A stretch of 64,000 bases of DNA from IMG/VR virus record IMGVR_UViG_3300035208_007487; one strand, given 5' to 3'. Positions 40,591-48,423 of the stretch are shown one piece after another (the stretch's first letter is position 1; each line of letters opens with the position of its first letter). The translations under genes were made by a program, and so were the position numbers. The notes beneath the pieces were generated by a model that was not told the origin of the DNA, did no database searches, and was given only the letters and a program-made list of their open reading frames with translations. The DNA comes from a virus (lineage: Duplodnaviria > Caudoviricetes).

Positions 40591-42142
40591 CAACTGTTCC
40601 ACTAAATGAAATACTAAATGTTAGAATAATTGTGTTACTATCAACAACCGTAATACTAGGAATAATTGTTGAACCCGATGAATTAGTACAATTTACAGTA
40701 ACTGTTTTATTTAAATTATGAATAATTGTTGCAGTAGTTACATTGTATAAAGTAGTTGAATAAGTTGAAGTAATTGTTTTTTCTATTGAATTTACAATAT
40801 TATTATCAGATATCTCAGCAAAATGATCATATGCTAAGTCAACTACTGAACTTACATTAGTAACTCTTAAATTGTCATATACTGAATTAGTACTATCAGA
40901 AGTTTTTTTAGTATCTTTTTTTGAATTAGAAATATTAGTTTCAGCTAATGTTATTTCAGCTTTTTTTTCAACTAATTTTGCACTTAAATTAGTTGTTAAT
41001 TCTTTAACACGTAATGCTGCACTATCATCATCTGATATTGGCAAAAATGAACTTAATTTAGATTTAATTACATTACTTTGAGAAGATTTGATTGCTTCTG
41101 ATTCAATGGCATCTCTAGCTAAAATAGAAGCTCTTCCTCCAGTTAATGTATCTAATTCCTCACATATTACCTTAATTGCCCCTAGAGAAGCATTTGCAAG
41201 GCATGTAGAGTATTCTAATTGTGTTTGGACATACTTGCTAAGTAGACCATCTGGACCGCTTAAACAGTCTTCTAGCATCTCTTTTATTGCTTTAGCTAAA
41301 GATGAATTATTTTTTTTAGCGGAAGCTGGTAATTTTGATAGCATAGATGAAGGCAATTTGCTATCTCCTAAATCACTGTGCCCATTTTGCTTTAATATTT
41401 CGTAAAATTTACTTTCTTTATTTTTTAGAAAATCACTTATTGTAGAACTAGATTCATTGAATAATAATGCAGTATGTCCTGGTTCACTTTCATTTATTAA
41501 TGAGCTATCATTAAATTCAATATGTAACTCAGTATTTGATTGTTTTATAAAAATTCCACTTAAATTGAAATAATCACTATTATTAATATAAAACCAATTT
41601 ACTATATTATAAACATAGTCGAAATATTCAGATTTAGTTCTAATATCTATAGCTAATCCTCTTTGATGAACTGAGGTATTAGGCTTGGCCCAAGTATATC
41701 CTAATGAATTTAGTGCGGATTGAATTGAATTGTAATCAAATTCAAATAAATAATTACCATTATATTTTCCTATCAATTCAGGATTTGTTTGTTTTGATTT
41801 GTACTTTGAAAAATTAATATTTGGATTATTATCATATAATAATTTCAATCCTATTTTTGCTTGTAATTCAGGAGGAATATATGCATTTGAAATGTATGTG
41901 CTTTCTGGCATATATCTCCCAACTATACTCCAAAAATCATAATGAAAACTTTTAAGATAAGCTCCATCTAAAATTAAAGGTTGCAATAAAGGATATCTTA
42001 ATGTTTTAATACTATTATTTACACCAGATACTTCATACACTTTAGCATCGCTAATCAGTGAACTATTTCCATTTTGGAAATAACTTAAAGCGCTTGCATT
42101 AAAATATGATAGTGAAAGATCACTGCCCTTTGGATAATTCAT
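40580..42142 (-). CDS. Virion-associated protein with M15-type Zn peptidase domain
   Basis: SVHQRGLAIDI..LHIEF; C-terminal HNL..beta module. Confidence 0.65.
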   Translation of the reverse strand: MNYPKGSDLSLSYFNASALSYFQNGNSSLISDAKVYEVSGVNNSIKTLRYPLLQPLILDGAYLKSFHYDFWSIVGRYMPESTYISNAYIPPELQAKIGLKLLYDNNPNINFSKYKSKQTNPELIGKYNGNYLFEFDYNSIQSALNSLGYTWAKPNTSVHQRGLAIDIRTKSEYFDYVYNIVNWFYINNSDYFNLSGIFIKQSNTELHIEFNDSSLINESEPGHTALLFNESSSTISDFLKNKESKFYEILKQNGHSDLGDSKLPSSMLSKLPASAKKNNSSLAKAIKEMLEDCLSGPDGLLSKYVQTQLEYSTCLANASLGAIKVICEELDTLTGGRASILARDAIESEAIKSSQSNVIKSKLSSFLPISDDDSAALRVKELTTNLSAKLVEKKAEITLAETNISNSKKDTKKTSDSTNSVYDNLRVTNVSSVVDLAYDHFAEISDNNIVNSIEKTITSTYSTTLYNVTTATIIHNLNKTVTVNCTNSSGSTIIPSITVVDSNTIILTFSISFSGTVVIR

Positions 42143-43748
42143 TTAAAGTATTTATTATAGAAAATGTATGGTTTAAAGTAAGAGTTTCTATATTGAATTT
42201 TTTCTTTAAGTAATAACCATGCCTAGCTATATATTGTAGATTAACTCTACTTCTCCACATATTTCCTGTTCTTTTTAAAATTGATAAATCATCTACTAAA
42301 TCATAGATAGTGGCAAAATCCTTAGTTTCATGTAATCTTAATATTCTACCTATTGATTGTACAATTGTTTCATATGAGCGCAAAGATGATGCAAAAATAC
42401 AATTATGTAATTTCTTGATGTTAATACCTGTTGACATTGTTGTATAAGTAGCAACTAATATAACACCTTCTCTATCATTCATTGAAGTAATAATGGCATC
42501 TCTTTTTGTTTTCTTTATGCCACCGTATATTATTTCTGTAGTAAATTGAGGATGATATTTGTTTATATGTTTAACAATATCATCCAATTCACCATTTTCT
42601 ATTTTACTACAAAGAATTAATGTATTTTGTTTAGGTGTTATTTTACCAGAATTTATTAAATTAGATATGGTCCATAATTTTGATTTATTTAATCTTAATA
42701 ATTCAACTTCCTCATCAAATTTTATATCATTTTGCTTCATAAATTTAATGGATTTTAAATCATAAGGTAACATTACTTCAACAATATTTGCTTTAGCCAA
42801 TATTCCTCTATCTTGAAGATCTTTAGTTTCAGCTAATATTATTTTTTTACCAAACGCACCTTCTAAAGTTTTCACATACAAAGGCTCTTCAGGAATCGTC
42901 CCGGTGAATCCTAGTCTGTATTCAGCATTTATGCATGAATTCAATACTCCTAATAATGTTTTACCATCTTTTTTTGCTCTATGCGCTTCATCTAACATAA
43001 CCATATTGAATCTATTACAGAATTCTTTATCTTTTGATAGTAATCCATCAATTGAATTATATACAGCTATCATTACTGGCTTAGTTAATGCATCTGCTTT
43101 TTCAGAGGCAGTAAATTCAGAATCATATAATCCAACATATTTGTCAATATTATTCCATTTATATGATTTAAAATCTCTATACATTTGAGTAACTAATGCT
43201 ACATTTGGAACTAACAATAATACTTTAAAATCTTTATCTTTATTTAAATGCATTAAATATCTTATTAATAGATAAATTAATACACTTTTACCAGATCCAG
43301 TAGGTGATTCAAATAATAGTCTTTTCTTTTTAATAGCTAATTTAAATCCATTAATTTGAAAATCATATGGATTGAATCCATTTAATTTAGCAAAATTATC
43401 AATAAATGAATCTATTTCATCGTAATTAATATTATCTTCTAAAAATGATGTTTTAATATCATCACTAACTTCTACTTCAAATGAAGATGCTTTTAGTAAT
43501 TTAACGGCTTCAGGCACTAAGCCTAATGGCAAAGCTCCATATATTTTTTTAAATACATGTAATTTACCATCATATCTAGTTATTTTTCTATTTTTGTACC
43601 TTTTATCAAATTTATAATTTGGAGTATATATTGCAAAATTACCATCTAAATATGATAATGGATTTGCATAAGTAGATTCTGTTTCTGATCTACCTAACCA
43701 AACAAATTTAGCCCATATATTGTTTAATTTATCTACTCTAACTGGCAC
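42120..43748 (-). CDS. uvsW: SF2 DNA helicase UvsW
   Basis: SPTGSGKS, DEAH, GFTGT, STGINIK.LHN, QSIGR.LR. Confidence 0.93.
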   Translation of the reverse strand: MPVRVDKLNNIWAKFVWLGRSETESTYANPLSYLDGNFAIYTPNYKFDKRYKNRKITRYDGKLHVFKKIYGALPLGLVPEAVKLLKASSFEVEVSDDIKTSFLEDNINYDEIDSFIDNFAKLNGFNPYDFQINGFKLAIKKKRLLFESPTGSGKSVLIYLLIRYLMHLNKDKDFKVLLLVPNVALVTQMYRDFKSYKWNNIDKYVGLYDSEFTASEKADALTKPVMIAVYNSIDGLLSKDKEFCNRFNMVMLDEAHRAKKDGKTLLGVLNSCINAEYRLGFTGTIPEEPLYVKTLEGAFGKKIILAETKDLQDRGILAKANIVEVMLPYDLKSIKFMKQNDIKFDEEVELLRLNKSKLWTISNLINSGKITPKQNTLILCSKIENGELDDIVKHINKYHPQFTTEIIYGGIKKTKRDAIITSMNDREGVILVATYTTMSTGINIKKLHNCIFASSLRSYETIVQSIGRILRLHETKDFATIYDLVDDLSILKRTGNMWRSRVNLQYIARHGYYLKKKFNIETLTLNHTFSIINTLNELSKGQ

Positions 43749-43778: not shown

Positions 43779-44234
43779 TTAGTATGCCATTAATGAAGTC
43801 TTAATCAATTCAACTTGATTTGATACTTTAGCATTAATGTATTTAAAATACTCTACATAATCCTTAAGTAAATTGTATATTACTTCTAATTTTGAGATAC
43901 TTTCTCGTATTGAAATATATTCACTATCAAGGGCTATTTTTTCAAGCATTTCAGTCTTGTCAATAACTCTATGTTCATTGAAAGTTTCATCATATCTACA
44001 TTTTTGTTTTATTTTATTTTCTATAATATTTAATTTATTTTTTAATTGATTTAATTTTATAGAAGTTCTACCTAATTTTGATAACCATTTATTAAATAGC
44101 AATCCAGTACCTAGATTGTATCTCATTAAATCTTCAATTTTCTCTGGAAGTACACTATCTTTTTCAAATATATTAATGAGATTTTCAAGTTTATATTCTT
44201 CATCAAACATTATCTCAAAATCAGTCTTTTCCAT
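43779..44234 (-). CDS. uvsY: Recombination mediator UvsY-like
   Basis: About 150-aa helical protein next to uvsW as in T4; weak motif support. Confidence 0.55.
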   Translation of the reverse strand: MEKTDFEIMFDEEYKLENLINIFEKDSVLPEKIEDLMRYNLGTGLLFNKWLSKLGRTSIKLNQLKNKLNIIENKIKQKCRYDETFNEHRVIDKTEMLEKIALDSEYISIRESISKLEVIYNLLKDYVEYFKYINAKVSNQVELIKTSLMAY

Positions 44235-44297
44235 TATGTAAATTATAACTATTGTTTAATAGCTATATATAAATTATATATAATTATTTAATAATTC

Positions 44298-44525
44298 AAT
44301 ATGTTCTTTAATAATTATATATACTATAAATTATTCAATATATTGTACGAAGTACTAATAAATTAATCAATAATATATCAATACTTTTAAGATATTTAAC
44401 AATATATATTTAATTCTTTAATATGTTCTTTAATAATTATATATACTATAAATTATTCAATATATTGTACGAAGTACTAATAAATTAATCAATAATATAT
44501 CAATACTTTTAAGATATTTAACAAT
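44298..44525. repeat. Exact 106-bp direct repeat (44298-44403 and 44420-44525), extremely AT-rich
   Basis: The two copies read identical; period 122 bp. Confidence 0.9.
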
Positions 44526-44539
44526 TGGATATAATTTCT

Positions 44540-44848
44540 CTAATTCCCCCTTCCAGCCCCATTGAGATTTGACGAATCTCAGCTAGAAGAAGTACTTCTC
44601 TACATTACAAAACTTATGTCATTAAGAATTATATGTAACGCCCCCCTTTAGATACTCAGTTGTGATTTCGATGAAATCTAGGAATTTCTCTTCCTAATCA
44701 ACTACCTCTGCCATGCTCCAGTTGTTAAGATATACTTAACAACCTCCCGTAGGCGTATCTACAATGTCTATGAGCCAGCTTCATCAGCTTTGATTTCTCG
44801 TGACTCTCATAAACCTTCCTCCGATTTCTGTTAGCTCGGAAACTCTAA
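44540..44848 (-). ncRNA. Putative structured non-coding RNA / origin primer RNA
   Basis: Several nested stems, G-tracts, no ORF, TATACT -10 at 44853-44858 on the minus strand. Confidence 0.55.
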
Positions 44849-44907
44849 GCAAAGTATAACAAAAAATTTTGGTTTGATATAATTACTTAGTAGAACTAAA
44901 TAAGTAG

Positions 44908-46251
44908 GTGAGCATGAAACATTTTTTAAAATATAGCACCGAATTAATTGATTTAATTTTAGGTGAATTATCCAATGGAGCTTCAGTTAAAGATTTATCT
45001 AAAAAATATGCAATAGATACTAGACGCATATATGAATGGAAAAACAAGCATAGAAAAAAAGTAGATGTTTCAATTAAACAAGATTTAGAGATTAAAGAAG
45101 AAAACGAAAAAGTAATTACTTCAAATTCTAAAGAATTTTTAACAATTGAAGAAGTATTAAGAAAAAATGGAATATCTCAAGATGAATGGGAAGTTACCAA
45201 TGTAAAGATAAACAATTGGGAAGATTCATCAGGTGAAGTGCATTATCAAAATAAAATAAATTTAATTAAGAAAAATATTAATTTAACTTATGAAGTACCG
45301 GCTCCAATTATAATTAATAATAATTCGCATCAATCATATCGTGCAACTTTAAATACAAATTTAAAATGTGCAATAATTTTACCAGACATTCAAACTGGTT
45401 TTAGACGAGATGTTAATACTGGTAAACTAACTGCTATTCATGATAGAGTTGCAATAGATTTAGCTCTTCAATTAATTAAATATTTAAATCCTCATAGAGT
45501 TGTTTTATTAGGAGATAATTTAGATTTAGCAGAATTTTCAACTAAATATCAAATTTCAAATGATTTTTATTTTACAACTCAAGCATCTCTAGTAGAACTA
45601 GCTTGGTGGCTTGGGCAAATAAGATCAATAAATCCTAACATGCAAATTGATTACACACAAGGTAATCATGAAAAAAGACTTGAAAAATATATAAATGAAA
45701 AAGCAATTGCATTAAGCGGCTTAAAAGCTGCAAATAACCTAAATGGATTTCCTTCAATTAGTGTCGAATCGTTATTAGGTTTAGATTCTTTAAATATTAA
45801 ATGTCATTCATATCCAGAAGGTAAAGTAGCTCTTAATAGTAATTTAATTTGTATACATGGAGAAACAGCAAAAGGCCAATCTGGTGCAACTGTTTCTGAA
45901 TTAGTTAAATCAGCCAGAGTATCAGTAATTCAAGGGCATATACATAGACATGAAGTAGCTGTTAGAACTACTTGGGATGCTTATGATGATTATTATCAAT
46001 ACACTGCTGCATCATTTGGATGTTTATGTAAAATAGCTCCAGGGGTTGTACCTGGAATGAAGATACGCCAAAATTGGCAAAACGGCATTGGTATTGTTTG
46101 GTATGAAGAATCTGGATTAGAACAATTTAGATTAGAATATGTACCAATTATTAATGGTAGAAGCTTATATGATGGAGTAATATTTAATGGTAGTAATGAA
46201 TCAGATATTGTAAAAAACATAGAAAGCGACACTAATTATAAAGTATCATGA
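44908..46251 (+). CDS. HTH-fused calcineurin-like metallophosphoesterase
   Basis: N-terminal HTH; PDIQ, GDNLD, GNHE, HGE, GHIHR. Confidence 0.85.
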   Translation: MSMKHFLKYSTELIDLILGELSNGASVKDLSKKYAIDTRRIYEWKNKHRKKVDVSIKQDLEIKEENEKVITSNSKEFLTIEEVLRKNGISQDEWEVTNVKINNWEDSSGEVHYQNKINLIKKNINLTYEVPAPIIINNNSHQSYRATLNTNLKCAIILPDIQTGFRRDVNTGKLTAIHDRVAIDLALQLIKYLNPHRVVLLGDNLDLAEFSTKYQISNDFYFTTQASLVELAWWLGQIRSINPNMQIDYTQGNHEKRLEKYINEKAIALSGLKAANNLNGFPSISVESLLGLDSLNIKCHSYPEGKVALNSNLICIHGETAKGQSGATVSELVKSARVSVIQGHIHRHEVAVRTTWDAYDDYYQYTAASFGCLCKIAPGVVPGMKIRQNWQNGIGIVWYEESGLEQFRLEYVPIINGRSLYDGVIFNGSNESDIVKNIESDTNYKVS

Positions 46252-46554: not shown

Positions 46555-48423
46555 ATGTCGAGGTATATTGAATTCGTAGAATGTGGTTTTAAAAATATTT
46601 TTAGATATGGGGCTAATTGGACAGTATTTAAGTTCAATAGTGGATTAACGAATGTATTTGGAAAAAATGGAATAGGTAAATCCACTATATTAGAAGCTCT
46701 TCATTATTGTTTGTTTGGTGAATCATATCGGGGGCTTACTTTAGCCAAATTAATCAATAGATCTAATAAGAAAAATTTTGAAATATATTTAATAATTAAA
46801 ATAGTTTCAAATGGCAAAGAAGTTACTTATAAAATATTAAGAGGGCTTGATCCTAAAATTGAACAATTATATATACTAGGAGATCCGAAACCAATAGATA
46901 TTAACGGTAGATTTAACAAATATATTATTGATAATTTATTAGGATTTGATGCTAATATTAATAAAAAAGTAATATCAGTTAATCCAAAAAACAATTCATT
47001 CACTACAATGTCTTTAGATGAAAGACGAAAAGTTATTGATTCAATAGTTAATCTAAGTAAAACTAAAGAATATTTGAAAAATATAAAAGATAAATTAAAT
47101 GAAGAAGCTACTAAAAAAACAATATTAATATCTGATATTGATTTTAATAAGCGTTCGGCTGAACCTTATGAAATAATGATTGCTAAAAATGACATTGATA
47201 AAGATAGCAAGATCAACGCTATTGATTTATCAATATCAAAATGCAAGAAAGAGCAAGAAGATAATAATGTAAAATTAGTAGAATTAAATAATGGATTAAG
47301 TGATTTGGATGAAAATATCAATAAATTACTTAAAGAAGAGGCTGATTTAAAATCAGTTTATTTATTAAAAAACCCAAAAGAATTAAATAATAAATTAATT
47401 AAACTTAAATCAAGTTTATTATATCTGAAAAATAAAGCAAAGGATAAGAAAAATGAAATATCTAAAATCATTCCTAATACCATATGTTCTCACTGTGGAA
47501 ATAGTTATACAGTGGATCAAGCTAATGATAAAAGACGAGAAGAAACAATAGAATATAATAAAATACTTGAAGATGGTCGTAAAGTTAATGATGAATTAAA
47601 ATCTCTTAATGATGAAATCAATGCGTTAACTAAGGAATATGACAACATTTCTAAATTAACTAATGAAATCATGGCTCTTAAAGATATAAAAAGTCAAAAG
47701 GTATATGAGATTAAAATAATTGAACAACAAAATCTATTAAGTAGTCGATCTATAGATGAATTAAGTGAAAATAGATTAGAATTATTAAAAGATAACACTA
47801 ATATTGATTCTATAAAAAATAAATTAGCTGAAATTAATAAAAATAAAATTAAATTAGATGTACAATTAGTTGAAATAAACAAGAGCATAGATAATTTGTC
47901 ATATTCGGCTAAGATGTTTTCGGACACTGGGCTTAAATCATTAATCTTACGCAAATTTTTGCCCATTTTAAATAAATTAATAAATTTCTATTTAAAAAAG
48001 TTTGAACTTAATATTACTTTCAATATTACCGAAGATTATAAGTATAATATTATTGCAGGAAATGAATATTCAGATGATTTTGATGGGTTATCAGGTGGCC
48101 AGCAGCAACGCATTAATTTGGCTATATTATTTGCACAAACTGATTTAATAAAATTAATAGGTAATTTTAAAACTAATTTATTATTTTTAGATGAATATAT
48201 TGATGGTGGAGTAGACGATGAAGGCTTAAATGCTACTATTAAAATATTAAAACAAATATGTTTAAAAGATAATAAATCAATTGTATTGATTTCTCATAAA
48301 TTAAATGCAAATATTATAAAAGAATTAGATTATTTTTATCACGCTAAGAAAATTAATGATAATTTTTCAGAATTAGTAGAAGTTGATTCGAGTTATACAT
48401 CTGAAATATTACTAGAAAATTAA
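46555..48423 (+). CDS. Recombination ATPase gp46 (Rad50/SbcC-like)
   Basis: GKNGIGKS, coiled coil with CSHC hook, LSGGQ, LFLDE, ISH. Confidence 0.93.
   Translation: MSRYIEFVECGFKNIFRYGANWTVFKFNSGLTNVFGKNGIGKSTILEALHYCLFGESYRGLTLAKLINRSNKKNFEIYLIIKIVSNGKEVTYKILRGLDPKIEQLYILGDPKPIDINGRFNKYIIDNLLGFDANINKKVISVNPKNNSFTTMSLDERRKVIDSIVNLSKTKEYLKNIKDKLNEEATKKTILISDIDFNKRSAEPYEIMIAKNDIDKDSKINAIDLSISKCKKEQEDNNVKLVELNNGLSDLDENINKLLKEEADLKSVYLLKNPKELNNKLIKLKSSLLYLKNKAKDKKNEISKIIPNTICSHCGNSYTVDQANDKRREETIEYNKILEDGRKVNDELKSLNDEINALTKEYDNISKLTNEIMALKDIKSQKVYEIKIIEQQNLLSSRSIDELSENRLELLKDNTNIDSIKNKLAEINKNKIKLDVQLVEINKSIDNLSYSAKMFSDTGLKSLILRKFLPILNKLINFYLKKFELNITFNITEDYKYNIIAGNEYSDDFDGLSGGQQQRINLAILFAQTDLIKLIGNFKTNLLFLDEYIDGGVDDEGLNATIKILKQICLKDNKSIVLISHKLNANIIKELDYFYHAKKINDNFSELVEVDSSYTSEILLEN

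Follow-up and report, generated by a model that had tools for sequence, protein, structure and literature searches.

Phage T4 offers some of the closest described systems. Its origins oriE, oriF and oriG sit where transcription diverges, oriF at uvsY; oriF and oriG consist of a promoter and an AT-rich unwinding element, with no requirement for a particular sequence; in oriE, an early promoter is joined to 12-nt iterons, and UvsW removes R-loops at the origins (PMC3016281). The locus we describe here, from an uncultivated T4-like jumbo phage, resembles oriF and oriG in having a promoter directed toward an AT-rich zone at a divergence point, in the neighborhood of uvsY and UvsW genes. It differs in that the AT-rich zone lies ~320 nt past the predicted start, behind a predicted structured RNA, whereas the T4 element directly follows its promoter (within ~100 bp). 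The T4 origins are also only ~100 bp long, require no specific transcript sequence or fold, and show no sequence similarity to our locus, whose promoter is of the early or host type, with an extended -10, and is not classed as MotA-type. An early-mode promoter coupled with direct repeats (at 10 of 12 loci) recalls oriE, as an analogy of layout only and without sequence homology.

Structured RNAs longer than 300 nt with multi-domain folds are rare and have repeatedly been the source of new biochemistry. GOLLD and ROOL are large, ornate phage or prophage RNAs supported by covariation and lacking coding capacity, and our element appears to share these properties; it differs from them in its smaller size (~320 nt), in the lack of an Rfam match up to E 10, and in its location within a replication and recombination module rather than near tRNAs. 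ColE1 RNA II, a transcript of several hundred nucleotides, folds in a manner that decides whether a persistent hybrid forms and primes synthesis, with the involvement of G-runs. The likeness of our element to RNA II is one of principle only, consisting of a large fold and G-runs: neither sequence nor structure matches, the 3' G-run is paired in a helix (P7, below), and no RNase H site is known here.

The element beside uvsY and its homologues

The window, the whole 64,000-nt stretch of DNA that we analyzed, corresponds to bases 1–64000 of contig C18 (212,780 bp). Since C18 has a GC content of 29% and the remainder of the MAG ~43%, we regard it as a jumbo-phage contig binned with a bacterium. 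The locus is flanked on one side by two minus-strand genes, encoding a UvsW-like helicase (42120–43748; Pfam ResIII, DEAD and Helicase_C, with PF21241 UvsW_N in homologues) and a uvsY-like recombination mediator (43779–44234; PHROG 231, E 5e-4, with PF11056 UvsY in homologues). On the other side is a divergent, plus-strand gp47/gp46-like (Mre11/Rad50) pair. This consists of a gp47/Mre11-like metallophosphoesterase (44873–46251 including its promoter, ATG at 44914; PHROG 20266, E 8.5e-47), which bears an N-terminal HTH with a weak match to PF01527 HTH_Tnp_1 below the gathering score, and a gp46/Rad50-like ATPase (46555–48423), with a 99-aa ORF on the same strand between them. The UvsW-like protein is ~32% identical to a cyanophage "RNA-DNA + DNA-DNA helicase" and likewise to its counterparts in other T4-like phages; this low identity places the phage on a distant, uncultivated branch.

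Between these gene blocks, positions 44527–44861 of the minus strand very probably hold the gene for a ~320-nt structured RNA of a family absent from Rfam, its newness being judged against Rfam 15; a separate catalogue lists ~10,000 candidate viral structured RNAs (PMC10690425). A sequence-only reading of the window had singled out this region as free of ORFs and richer in GC than its flanks, with a TATACT -10, a series of stems and two G-tracts on the minus strand and an AT-rich duplicated block beyond, and we found every one of these features in its place. No ORF of at least 30 aa occurs in 44242–44882 on either strand, and GC content is 34–38% in the element versus 12–25% in its flanks. The RNA is single-copy in its genome. 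Searching the 64-kb window with Rfam 15 at gathering thresholds gave no matches, a permissive search of 44100–45000 (up to E 10) gave only chance-level ones (E ≥2), and a search of ten homologous loci (E up to 1) found nothing within the element; a tRNA/tmRNA scan found none, and blastn of the region against GenBank phages returned no match. The single-sequence minimum free energy is -89.6 kcal/mol for the minus strand and -64 kcal/mol for the plus strand, with a z-score of -2.9 on both. Taken alone, this is weak support that does not tell the strands apart, and it is comparison that makes the case.

A protein search with the gp47-like gene identified 68 relatives. Together with scans of IMG/VR and metagenomes, it provided 15 distinct versions of the RNA from metagenomic phage contigs, which form four groups: A (the window, L004, L002 and L051), B (L006, L007 and L008, with L009), C (L010, L011, L012, L016, L049 and L052) and D (L053). 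Gp47-like proteins beside the homologues are 43–66% identical to that of the window, the relatives keep the same gene order (helicase, uvsY, gap, gp47-like, small ORF, gp46-like), and the position and orientation of the RNA are identical in all homologues. Every gap contains 300–370 nt of raised GC adjoining the gp47-like gene and is lower in GC on the uvsY side. Likeness to the window is greatest in L004 (75% over 245 nt) and declines elsewhere to short conserved blocks, and a multi-domain fold is common to 12 of the 15 versions (groups A, C and D). The three group B sequences differ in their 5' half and were detected neither by covariance models nor by nhmmer; on the basis of the position, promoter and 3' tail (GGGGGG..GAGUGCGYC) that they have in common with the others, we count this group as a probable divergent member of the family.

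Broader scans returned no additional members. A single-protein scan of IMG/VR yielded nothing, a 16-nt motif scan of the same database produced at least 117 chance matches with none confirmed by nhmmer, and a gapped pattern with 21 specified bases recovered only the phages already collected and one chance match in a coding region. Covariance model R3 detected the RNA neither in 150 relatives of the MAG nor in gp47-like loci of 24–39% identity; the distant gp47-like genes examined have co-oriented neighbors and no large upstream intergenic region.

Promoter, strand and predicted fold

The TATACT hexamer (44858–44853, minus strand) is preceded by TGT, forming an extended -10 promoter (44853–44861, with TG at 44861–44860) from which, judging by spacing, transcription would start near 44846. 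All homologues examined carry the pattern TGnTAnnnT in the corresponding position (14 sequences scanned by regular expression), at a fixed distance before the first hairpin; it reads TGCTAAGAT or TGTTACGAT in the GC-richer phages. This promoter is back to back with that of the gp47-like gene (TGATATAAT, 44875–44883, plus strand), which lies ~20 bp off on the opposite strand in groups A and B and keeps the sequence TGnTAnAnT in both (alignment A1). Because the gp47-like gene has this promoter of its own, the element is not its leader. At the far end of the element (44525–44539), a -10-like sequence occurs on the plus strand in group A only; no plus-strand promoter is conserved inside the element, and in this the locus differs from ColE1, where the antisense regulator RNA I overlaps the 5' region of the primer.

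Two comparisons bear on the strand. Group-wise RNAalifold energies are -50, -79 and -95 kcal/mol for the minus strand versus -33, -50 and -54 kcal/mol for the plus strand, and G.U pairs account for 14% of the paired cells of domain 1, 10% of those of domain 2 and 26% of those of lower P7. Pairs of this type, which would be A.C mismatches on the plus strand, are frequent enough to mark the minus strand as the folding one.

The RNA is in all likelihood composed of a 5' hairpin (P1), three domains (P1–P2, a P3/P4/P5 three-way junction, and P6–P7) and a purine-rich tail; all coordinates of the fold given below are on the minus strand. Domain 1 (44765–44846) contains P1, P2, P2a and P2b. The P1 hairpin (UCCGA/UCGGA, 44840–44820) carries GNRA loops in group C (GAAA, GAGA and GCAA), and a UUCG loop also occurs, arguing for RNA rather than DNA. 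P2 is a 9-bp helix, (G)UUUAUGAG/CUCAUAGA(C), formed by 44814–44806 with 44774–44766, and is followed by a conserved GACA (44768–44765). It encloses the motif AGUCA, the 2-bp hairpin P2a with a GNNR loop, and P2b (GCU-GAUGA-AGC, 44788–44778), a 3-bp stem that covaries (U-A, C-G, U-G) beneath a loop of GAUGA, GAAGA or GACGA, with variation confined to the third base (U, A or C). The CUGAUGA sequence here is that of the P2b hairpin; we rejected a hammerhead ribozyme, as there is neither a stem I/II arrangement nor an Rfam hammerhead match. In alignment A11, which like that of domain 2 was fitted to the model and is therefore biased toward structure, pairing holds in 100% of cells and 9 of the 18 pairs have changed on both sides; none of 500 shuffles reached these values, and slid partners paired at 33–38%. 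Model R2, built from group C only, matches the window at 44765–44830 with E 4e-7 and also finds the other group A members in the syntenic places (E ~1e-7), and model R3 gives the window's domain 1 a score of 71 bits.

Domain 2 (44641–44764) is predicted to form a three-way junction closed by P3 (UAGAUAC/GUAUCUA, 44761–44755 with 44655–44649). Within it lie the P4 hairpin (GUUGUUAAG/CUUAACAAC, 44743–44721) and P5 (AGUUG/CAACU, 44704–44699 with 44662–44657), the latter enclosing P5a (UAGGAA/UUCCUA, 44696–44679), with the invariant loop AGAGA.A, and P5b (GAUUUC/GAAAUC, 44678–44664), which is present in groups A and D only. The first G-tract, GGGGGG (44646–44641), follows P3. Across P3, P3a, the base of P4, P5 and P5a (alignment A8, again fitted to the model), 96.2% of cells are paired and two-sided changes affect 16 of the 24 pairs, compared with no shuffle in 500 reaching these values and 34–46% pairing for slid partners. 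Model R1, from group C only, aligns full length with the window at 44642–44768 in the syntenic place (16.8 bits, E ~0.03–0.06) and finds other group A members full length at E 0.03–0.3, missing L004; a model from groups A and C also finds group D.

Domain 3 (44527–44640) begins with the variable hairpin P6 (CGUUACA/UGUAAUG, 44640–44603). The conserved sequence AAGUACUU (44597–44590) leads into P7, a long hairpin (44592–44547) whose 5' strand is rich in pyrimidines (CUUCUUCUAGCU), whose 3' strand is rich in G (GGCUGGAAGGGG) and whose upper part is formed by GAGAUU/AAUCUC, and the element closes with the purine-rich 3' tail GGGGGAAUUAGAGAAAUUAUAUCC (44550–44527). For lower P7, we used an alignment-free count from two anchors (AGUAC and the end of the G-run), which is free of the bias noted above: 95.5% of cells pair, versus 55–76% in the slid control, with compensatory changes at positions 6–11. 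Over the whole element, compensatory changes keep helices P1–P5a and P7 in 10–11 homologues of groups A, C and D, while P4 and P6 are hairpins at fixed positions with variable sequence. The invariant unpaired motifs are AGUCA, GACR, AGAGA.A in the P5a loop, RGGGGG after P3, AAGUACUY and the purine-rich tail, and conservation ends sharply after this tail, at 44527 in the window (alignment A10). Domain-wise models were needed for these results, as MAFFT/RNAalifold over the whole element in all groups recovered only P2. Taken together, the conserved minus-strand promoter, the strong covariation among homologues near uvsY/UvsW (domains 1 and 2 and P7) and the lack of an Rfam 15 match in the window and ten homologous loci lend good support to one of the two alternatives that the sequence-only reading had offered, a new class of phage ncRNA.

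The second G-tract (GGGGCUGGAAGGGGG, 44560–44546) forms the 3' strand of P7, where it pairs with the CUUC directly after AAGUA, and is not a free run. In no prediction is the first tract paired, and group B lacks it. The CUUC strand could in principle pair with either tract; both it and the first tract are invariant, and for this reason covariation cannot test the alternative pairing. Pairs of G-runs also occur in other groups (G6-UAA-G6 in group B, G5-AA..GGG in group C), and two such runs near the end of a promoter-driven transcript, adjoining a presumed origin, resemble the arrangement of the primer-forming G-runs at mitochondrial CSB II. The differences are that the runs here lie in a covarying hairpin, that the G-quadruplex pattern is not kept in group A, and that the polymerase is another one. 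We rejected a conserved intramolecular G-quadruplex, since four runs are not present in group A. A pairing between the GACGCU junction and the 3' tail was set aside because it fits L010 only, as was a CsrA-type GGA sponge, the window RNA having ~7 GGA by an eye count against ~8 expected from composition.

The AT-rich spacer and possible roles of the RNA

Past the tail, the window contains a spacer of ~12% GC made up of two tandem 122-bp copies that are 96% identical (44280–44523), the duplicated block mentioned above. Each copy has a sigma-70-like minus-strand promoter (TTGATT, 17 nt, TACAAT) facing uvsY, the gene downstream of the RNA on this strand. This block is a candidate DNA-unwinding or iteron zone or, alternatively, a duplicated uvsY promoter. 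Between the RNA and uvsY, the spacers of the family span 111–512 bp, are A-rich on the RNA-sense strand and fall to 8–14% GC in the AT-rich phages. Lineage-specific direct repeats occur at 10 of 12 loci (eleven loci and the window), L011 and L051 having none by the same scan. They include 122 bp ×2, 8 bp ×4, a 9-nt-period AGACTCTAC, 24 bp ×6 and palindromes ×3, and have the look of sites bound by a DNA-binding protein that co-evolves with them. Examples are TGAGCTAA ×4, TAGAGTCT/AGACTC with a 9-nt period, GGAGAGTCT ×5–6, 12- and 24-bp TTAAGTTCTTAA units ×6 and the palindrome TTGGCCGNNACGGCCA ×3; repeat sites were located at L015:853–884, L016:721–746 and 906–922, L052:887–1103, L004:2423–2609 and L053:655–858. 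We discarded the idea that AAGTACTT is a DNA operator recurring in the spacer, since this holds for no locus but the window and L002, in both of which it belongs to the uvsY promoter.

Three independent assemblies (L005, L006 and L010) end within the spacer between the RNA and uvsY, which fits repeats of variable copy number or possibly reflects a discontinuity, whether physical or in coverage. In L002, a strong intrinsic terminator lies 6 nt past the conserved tail (L002:2534–2560 in plus coordinates, a minus-strand feature), with an 11-bp stem (AACCUUUAAAG / CUUUAAAGGUU) followed by a U-run. It is the only clear terminator among 12 loci, L051 having a weaker hairpin further on. The GC skew of the RNA is +0.20 to +0.32 in all ten loci with a measured spacer. 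Cumulative GC skew has a local minimum at ~45–46 kb, at the transcription-divergence point, and its global minimum on the contig at 194 kb; given the latter, we do not use global skew as evidence for an origin.

We tentatively read the RNA as an early transcript of a replication-origin module, an interpretation that is plausible but short of probable. Host RNA polymerase would start at the extended -10 early in infection, produce the folded RNA and proceed toward the AT-rich, repeat-bearing spacer before uvsY. There the transcript would prime leading-strand synthesis through an R-loop, or open the duplex so that the replisome can load. Whether the G-rich 3' part is free would be set by the fold, in which CUUC could in principle pair with either G-tract; a phage protein would bind the spacer repeats, and the neighboring UvsW-type helicase could later remove hybrids, as in T4. 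This matches the other alternative of the sequence-only reading, a folded primer RNA, for which the evidence is divided. In its favor are the divergence point with its local GC-skew minimum, the adjoining uvsY and UvsW genes, the lineage-specific repeats in an AT-rich spacer, the three assembly breaks there, the skew of the RNA itself and the similar siting of T4 origins. The pairing of the second G-tract in P7 weakens it, as do the global skew minimum at 194 kb and the uvsY-facing promoters within the window repeats, which could be mere promoter duplicates. The L002 terminator also counts against it, since it would halt the transcript before the repeats, and T4 R-loop origins, being independent of sequence, need no specific RNA and by themselves leave a conserved 300-nt fold unexplained. 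A more specific version is a T4-like origin that requires, in order to fire, a large primer or activator RNA with a specific fold, made early and directed toward iterons and an unwinding zone, with a G-tract/CUUC switch setting whether the 3' end engages the DNA. We consider this version rather doubtful; if true, it would join R-loop initiation as in T4 to a control through RNA folding like that of ColE1.

Several of these observations can be explained without a role in replication initiation. The L002 terminator directly past the tail, the sharp end of conservation and a 3' G-run that is structural would each be expected of a stand-alone, trans-acting stable ncRNA made early, such as an RNA-protein scaffold, a decoy or a ribozyme, found beside uvsY through synteny only. 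The multi-domain fold, GNRA-type loops and 5' hairpin are likewise typical of stable functional RNAs, and the invariant single-stranded motifs (AGUCA, GACR, AGAGA.A and AAGUACUU) agree with this account. It is possible, if somewhat unlikely: 11 of 12 loci lack a clear terminator, the constant orientation toward a repeat-rich spacer would be a coincidence, and neither a partner protein nor a target can be named. That orientation is also shared with uvsY and a ~40-kb run of mostly minus-strand genes (judged from the slope of the cumulative skew), as would suit a cis-acting 5' leader of a leftward early transcript (uvsY, UvsW and beyond) that mediates processive antitermination or attenuation like lambda nut or HK022 put, through a boxB-like P2b or the alternative CUUC/G-tract pairings. 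BoxB-type pentaloops with a GNRA fold show the GA-N-GA pattern. P2b is a promoter-proximal, GNRA-like pentaloop of this pattern with a U-A closing pair and only its third base variable, and in L012 its loop and closing pair read UGAAGAA, as in lambda nutL boxB. Terminator-like hairpins between the RNA and uvsY, in L002 and more weakly in L051, would give such a leader something to act on; most loci, however, show no terminator to read through, and in the window and L002 the spacer has uvsY promoters of its own. No boxA-like element is visible in the alignments, no N-like protein can be named, and the 300-nt element is at least four times larger than nut or put, with other domains that have no counterpart there. 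We therefore judge a leader function unlikely.

The pairing could instead act in single-stranded DNA, as a primosome-assembly signal or single-strand origin exposed during replication or recombination. Covariation alone cannot separate RNA from single-stranded DNA, G.T pairs exist in DNA, and recombination genes adjoin the region. Nevertheless, all 15 versions keep a promoter of the right orientation at a fixed distance, loops of the GNRA and UUCG types are RNA motifs, and G.U pairs, whose share is very high (26% in P7), are weak in DNA, making this by far the least credible explanation. The origin-transcript reading stands beside accounts of a different RNA function at a locus that sits exactly where T4-type phages place an origin. 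The RNA has a defined promoter and a secondary structure open to testing, and 15 natural variants of it are available. Should it belong to an origin, it would show that RNA structure can govern the R-loop origins of large phages, and the element would serve as a sequence marker by which origins could be recognized in uncultivated jumbo phages. Otherwise, it represents a new phage ncRNA class.

The genes and contigs around the locus have additional features. The uvsY gene has no evident Shine-Dalgarno sequence (44234–44260, minus strand) and a TATAAT-like element ~10 nt before its ATG, from which its leader is possibly very short; in contrast, the gp47-like gene has a clear GGTGA/AAGGAG-type ribosome-binding site. 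Low-GC contigs C3, C10, C25 and C36 (26–29%; 23–93 kb) are also present in the 43% GC bin and probably derive from the same phage as C18 or from related phages, and the bin exceeds its genus relatives in size by ~0.5–1 Mb. In several related phages the gp47-like protein is ~770–780 aa long with a faint LAGLIDADG_3 signal (P0004, P0009, P0011, P0020 and P0024), which suggests insertion of an intein.
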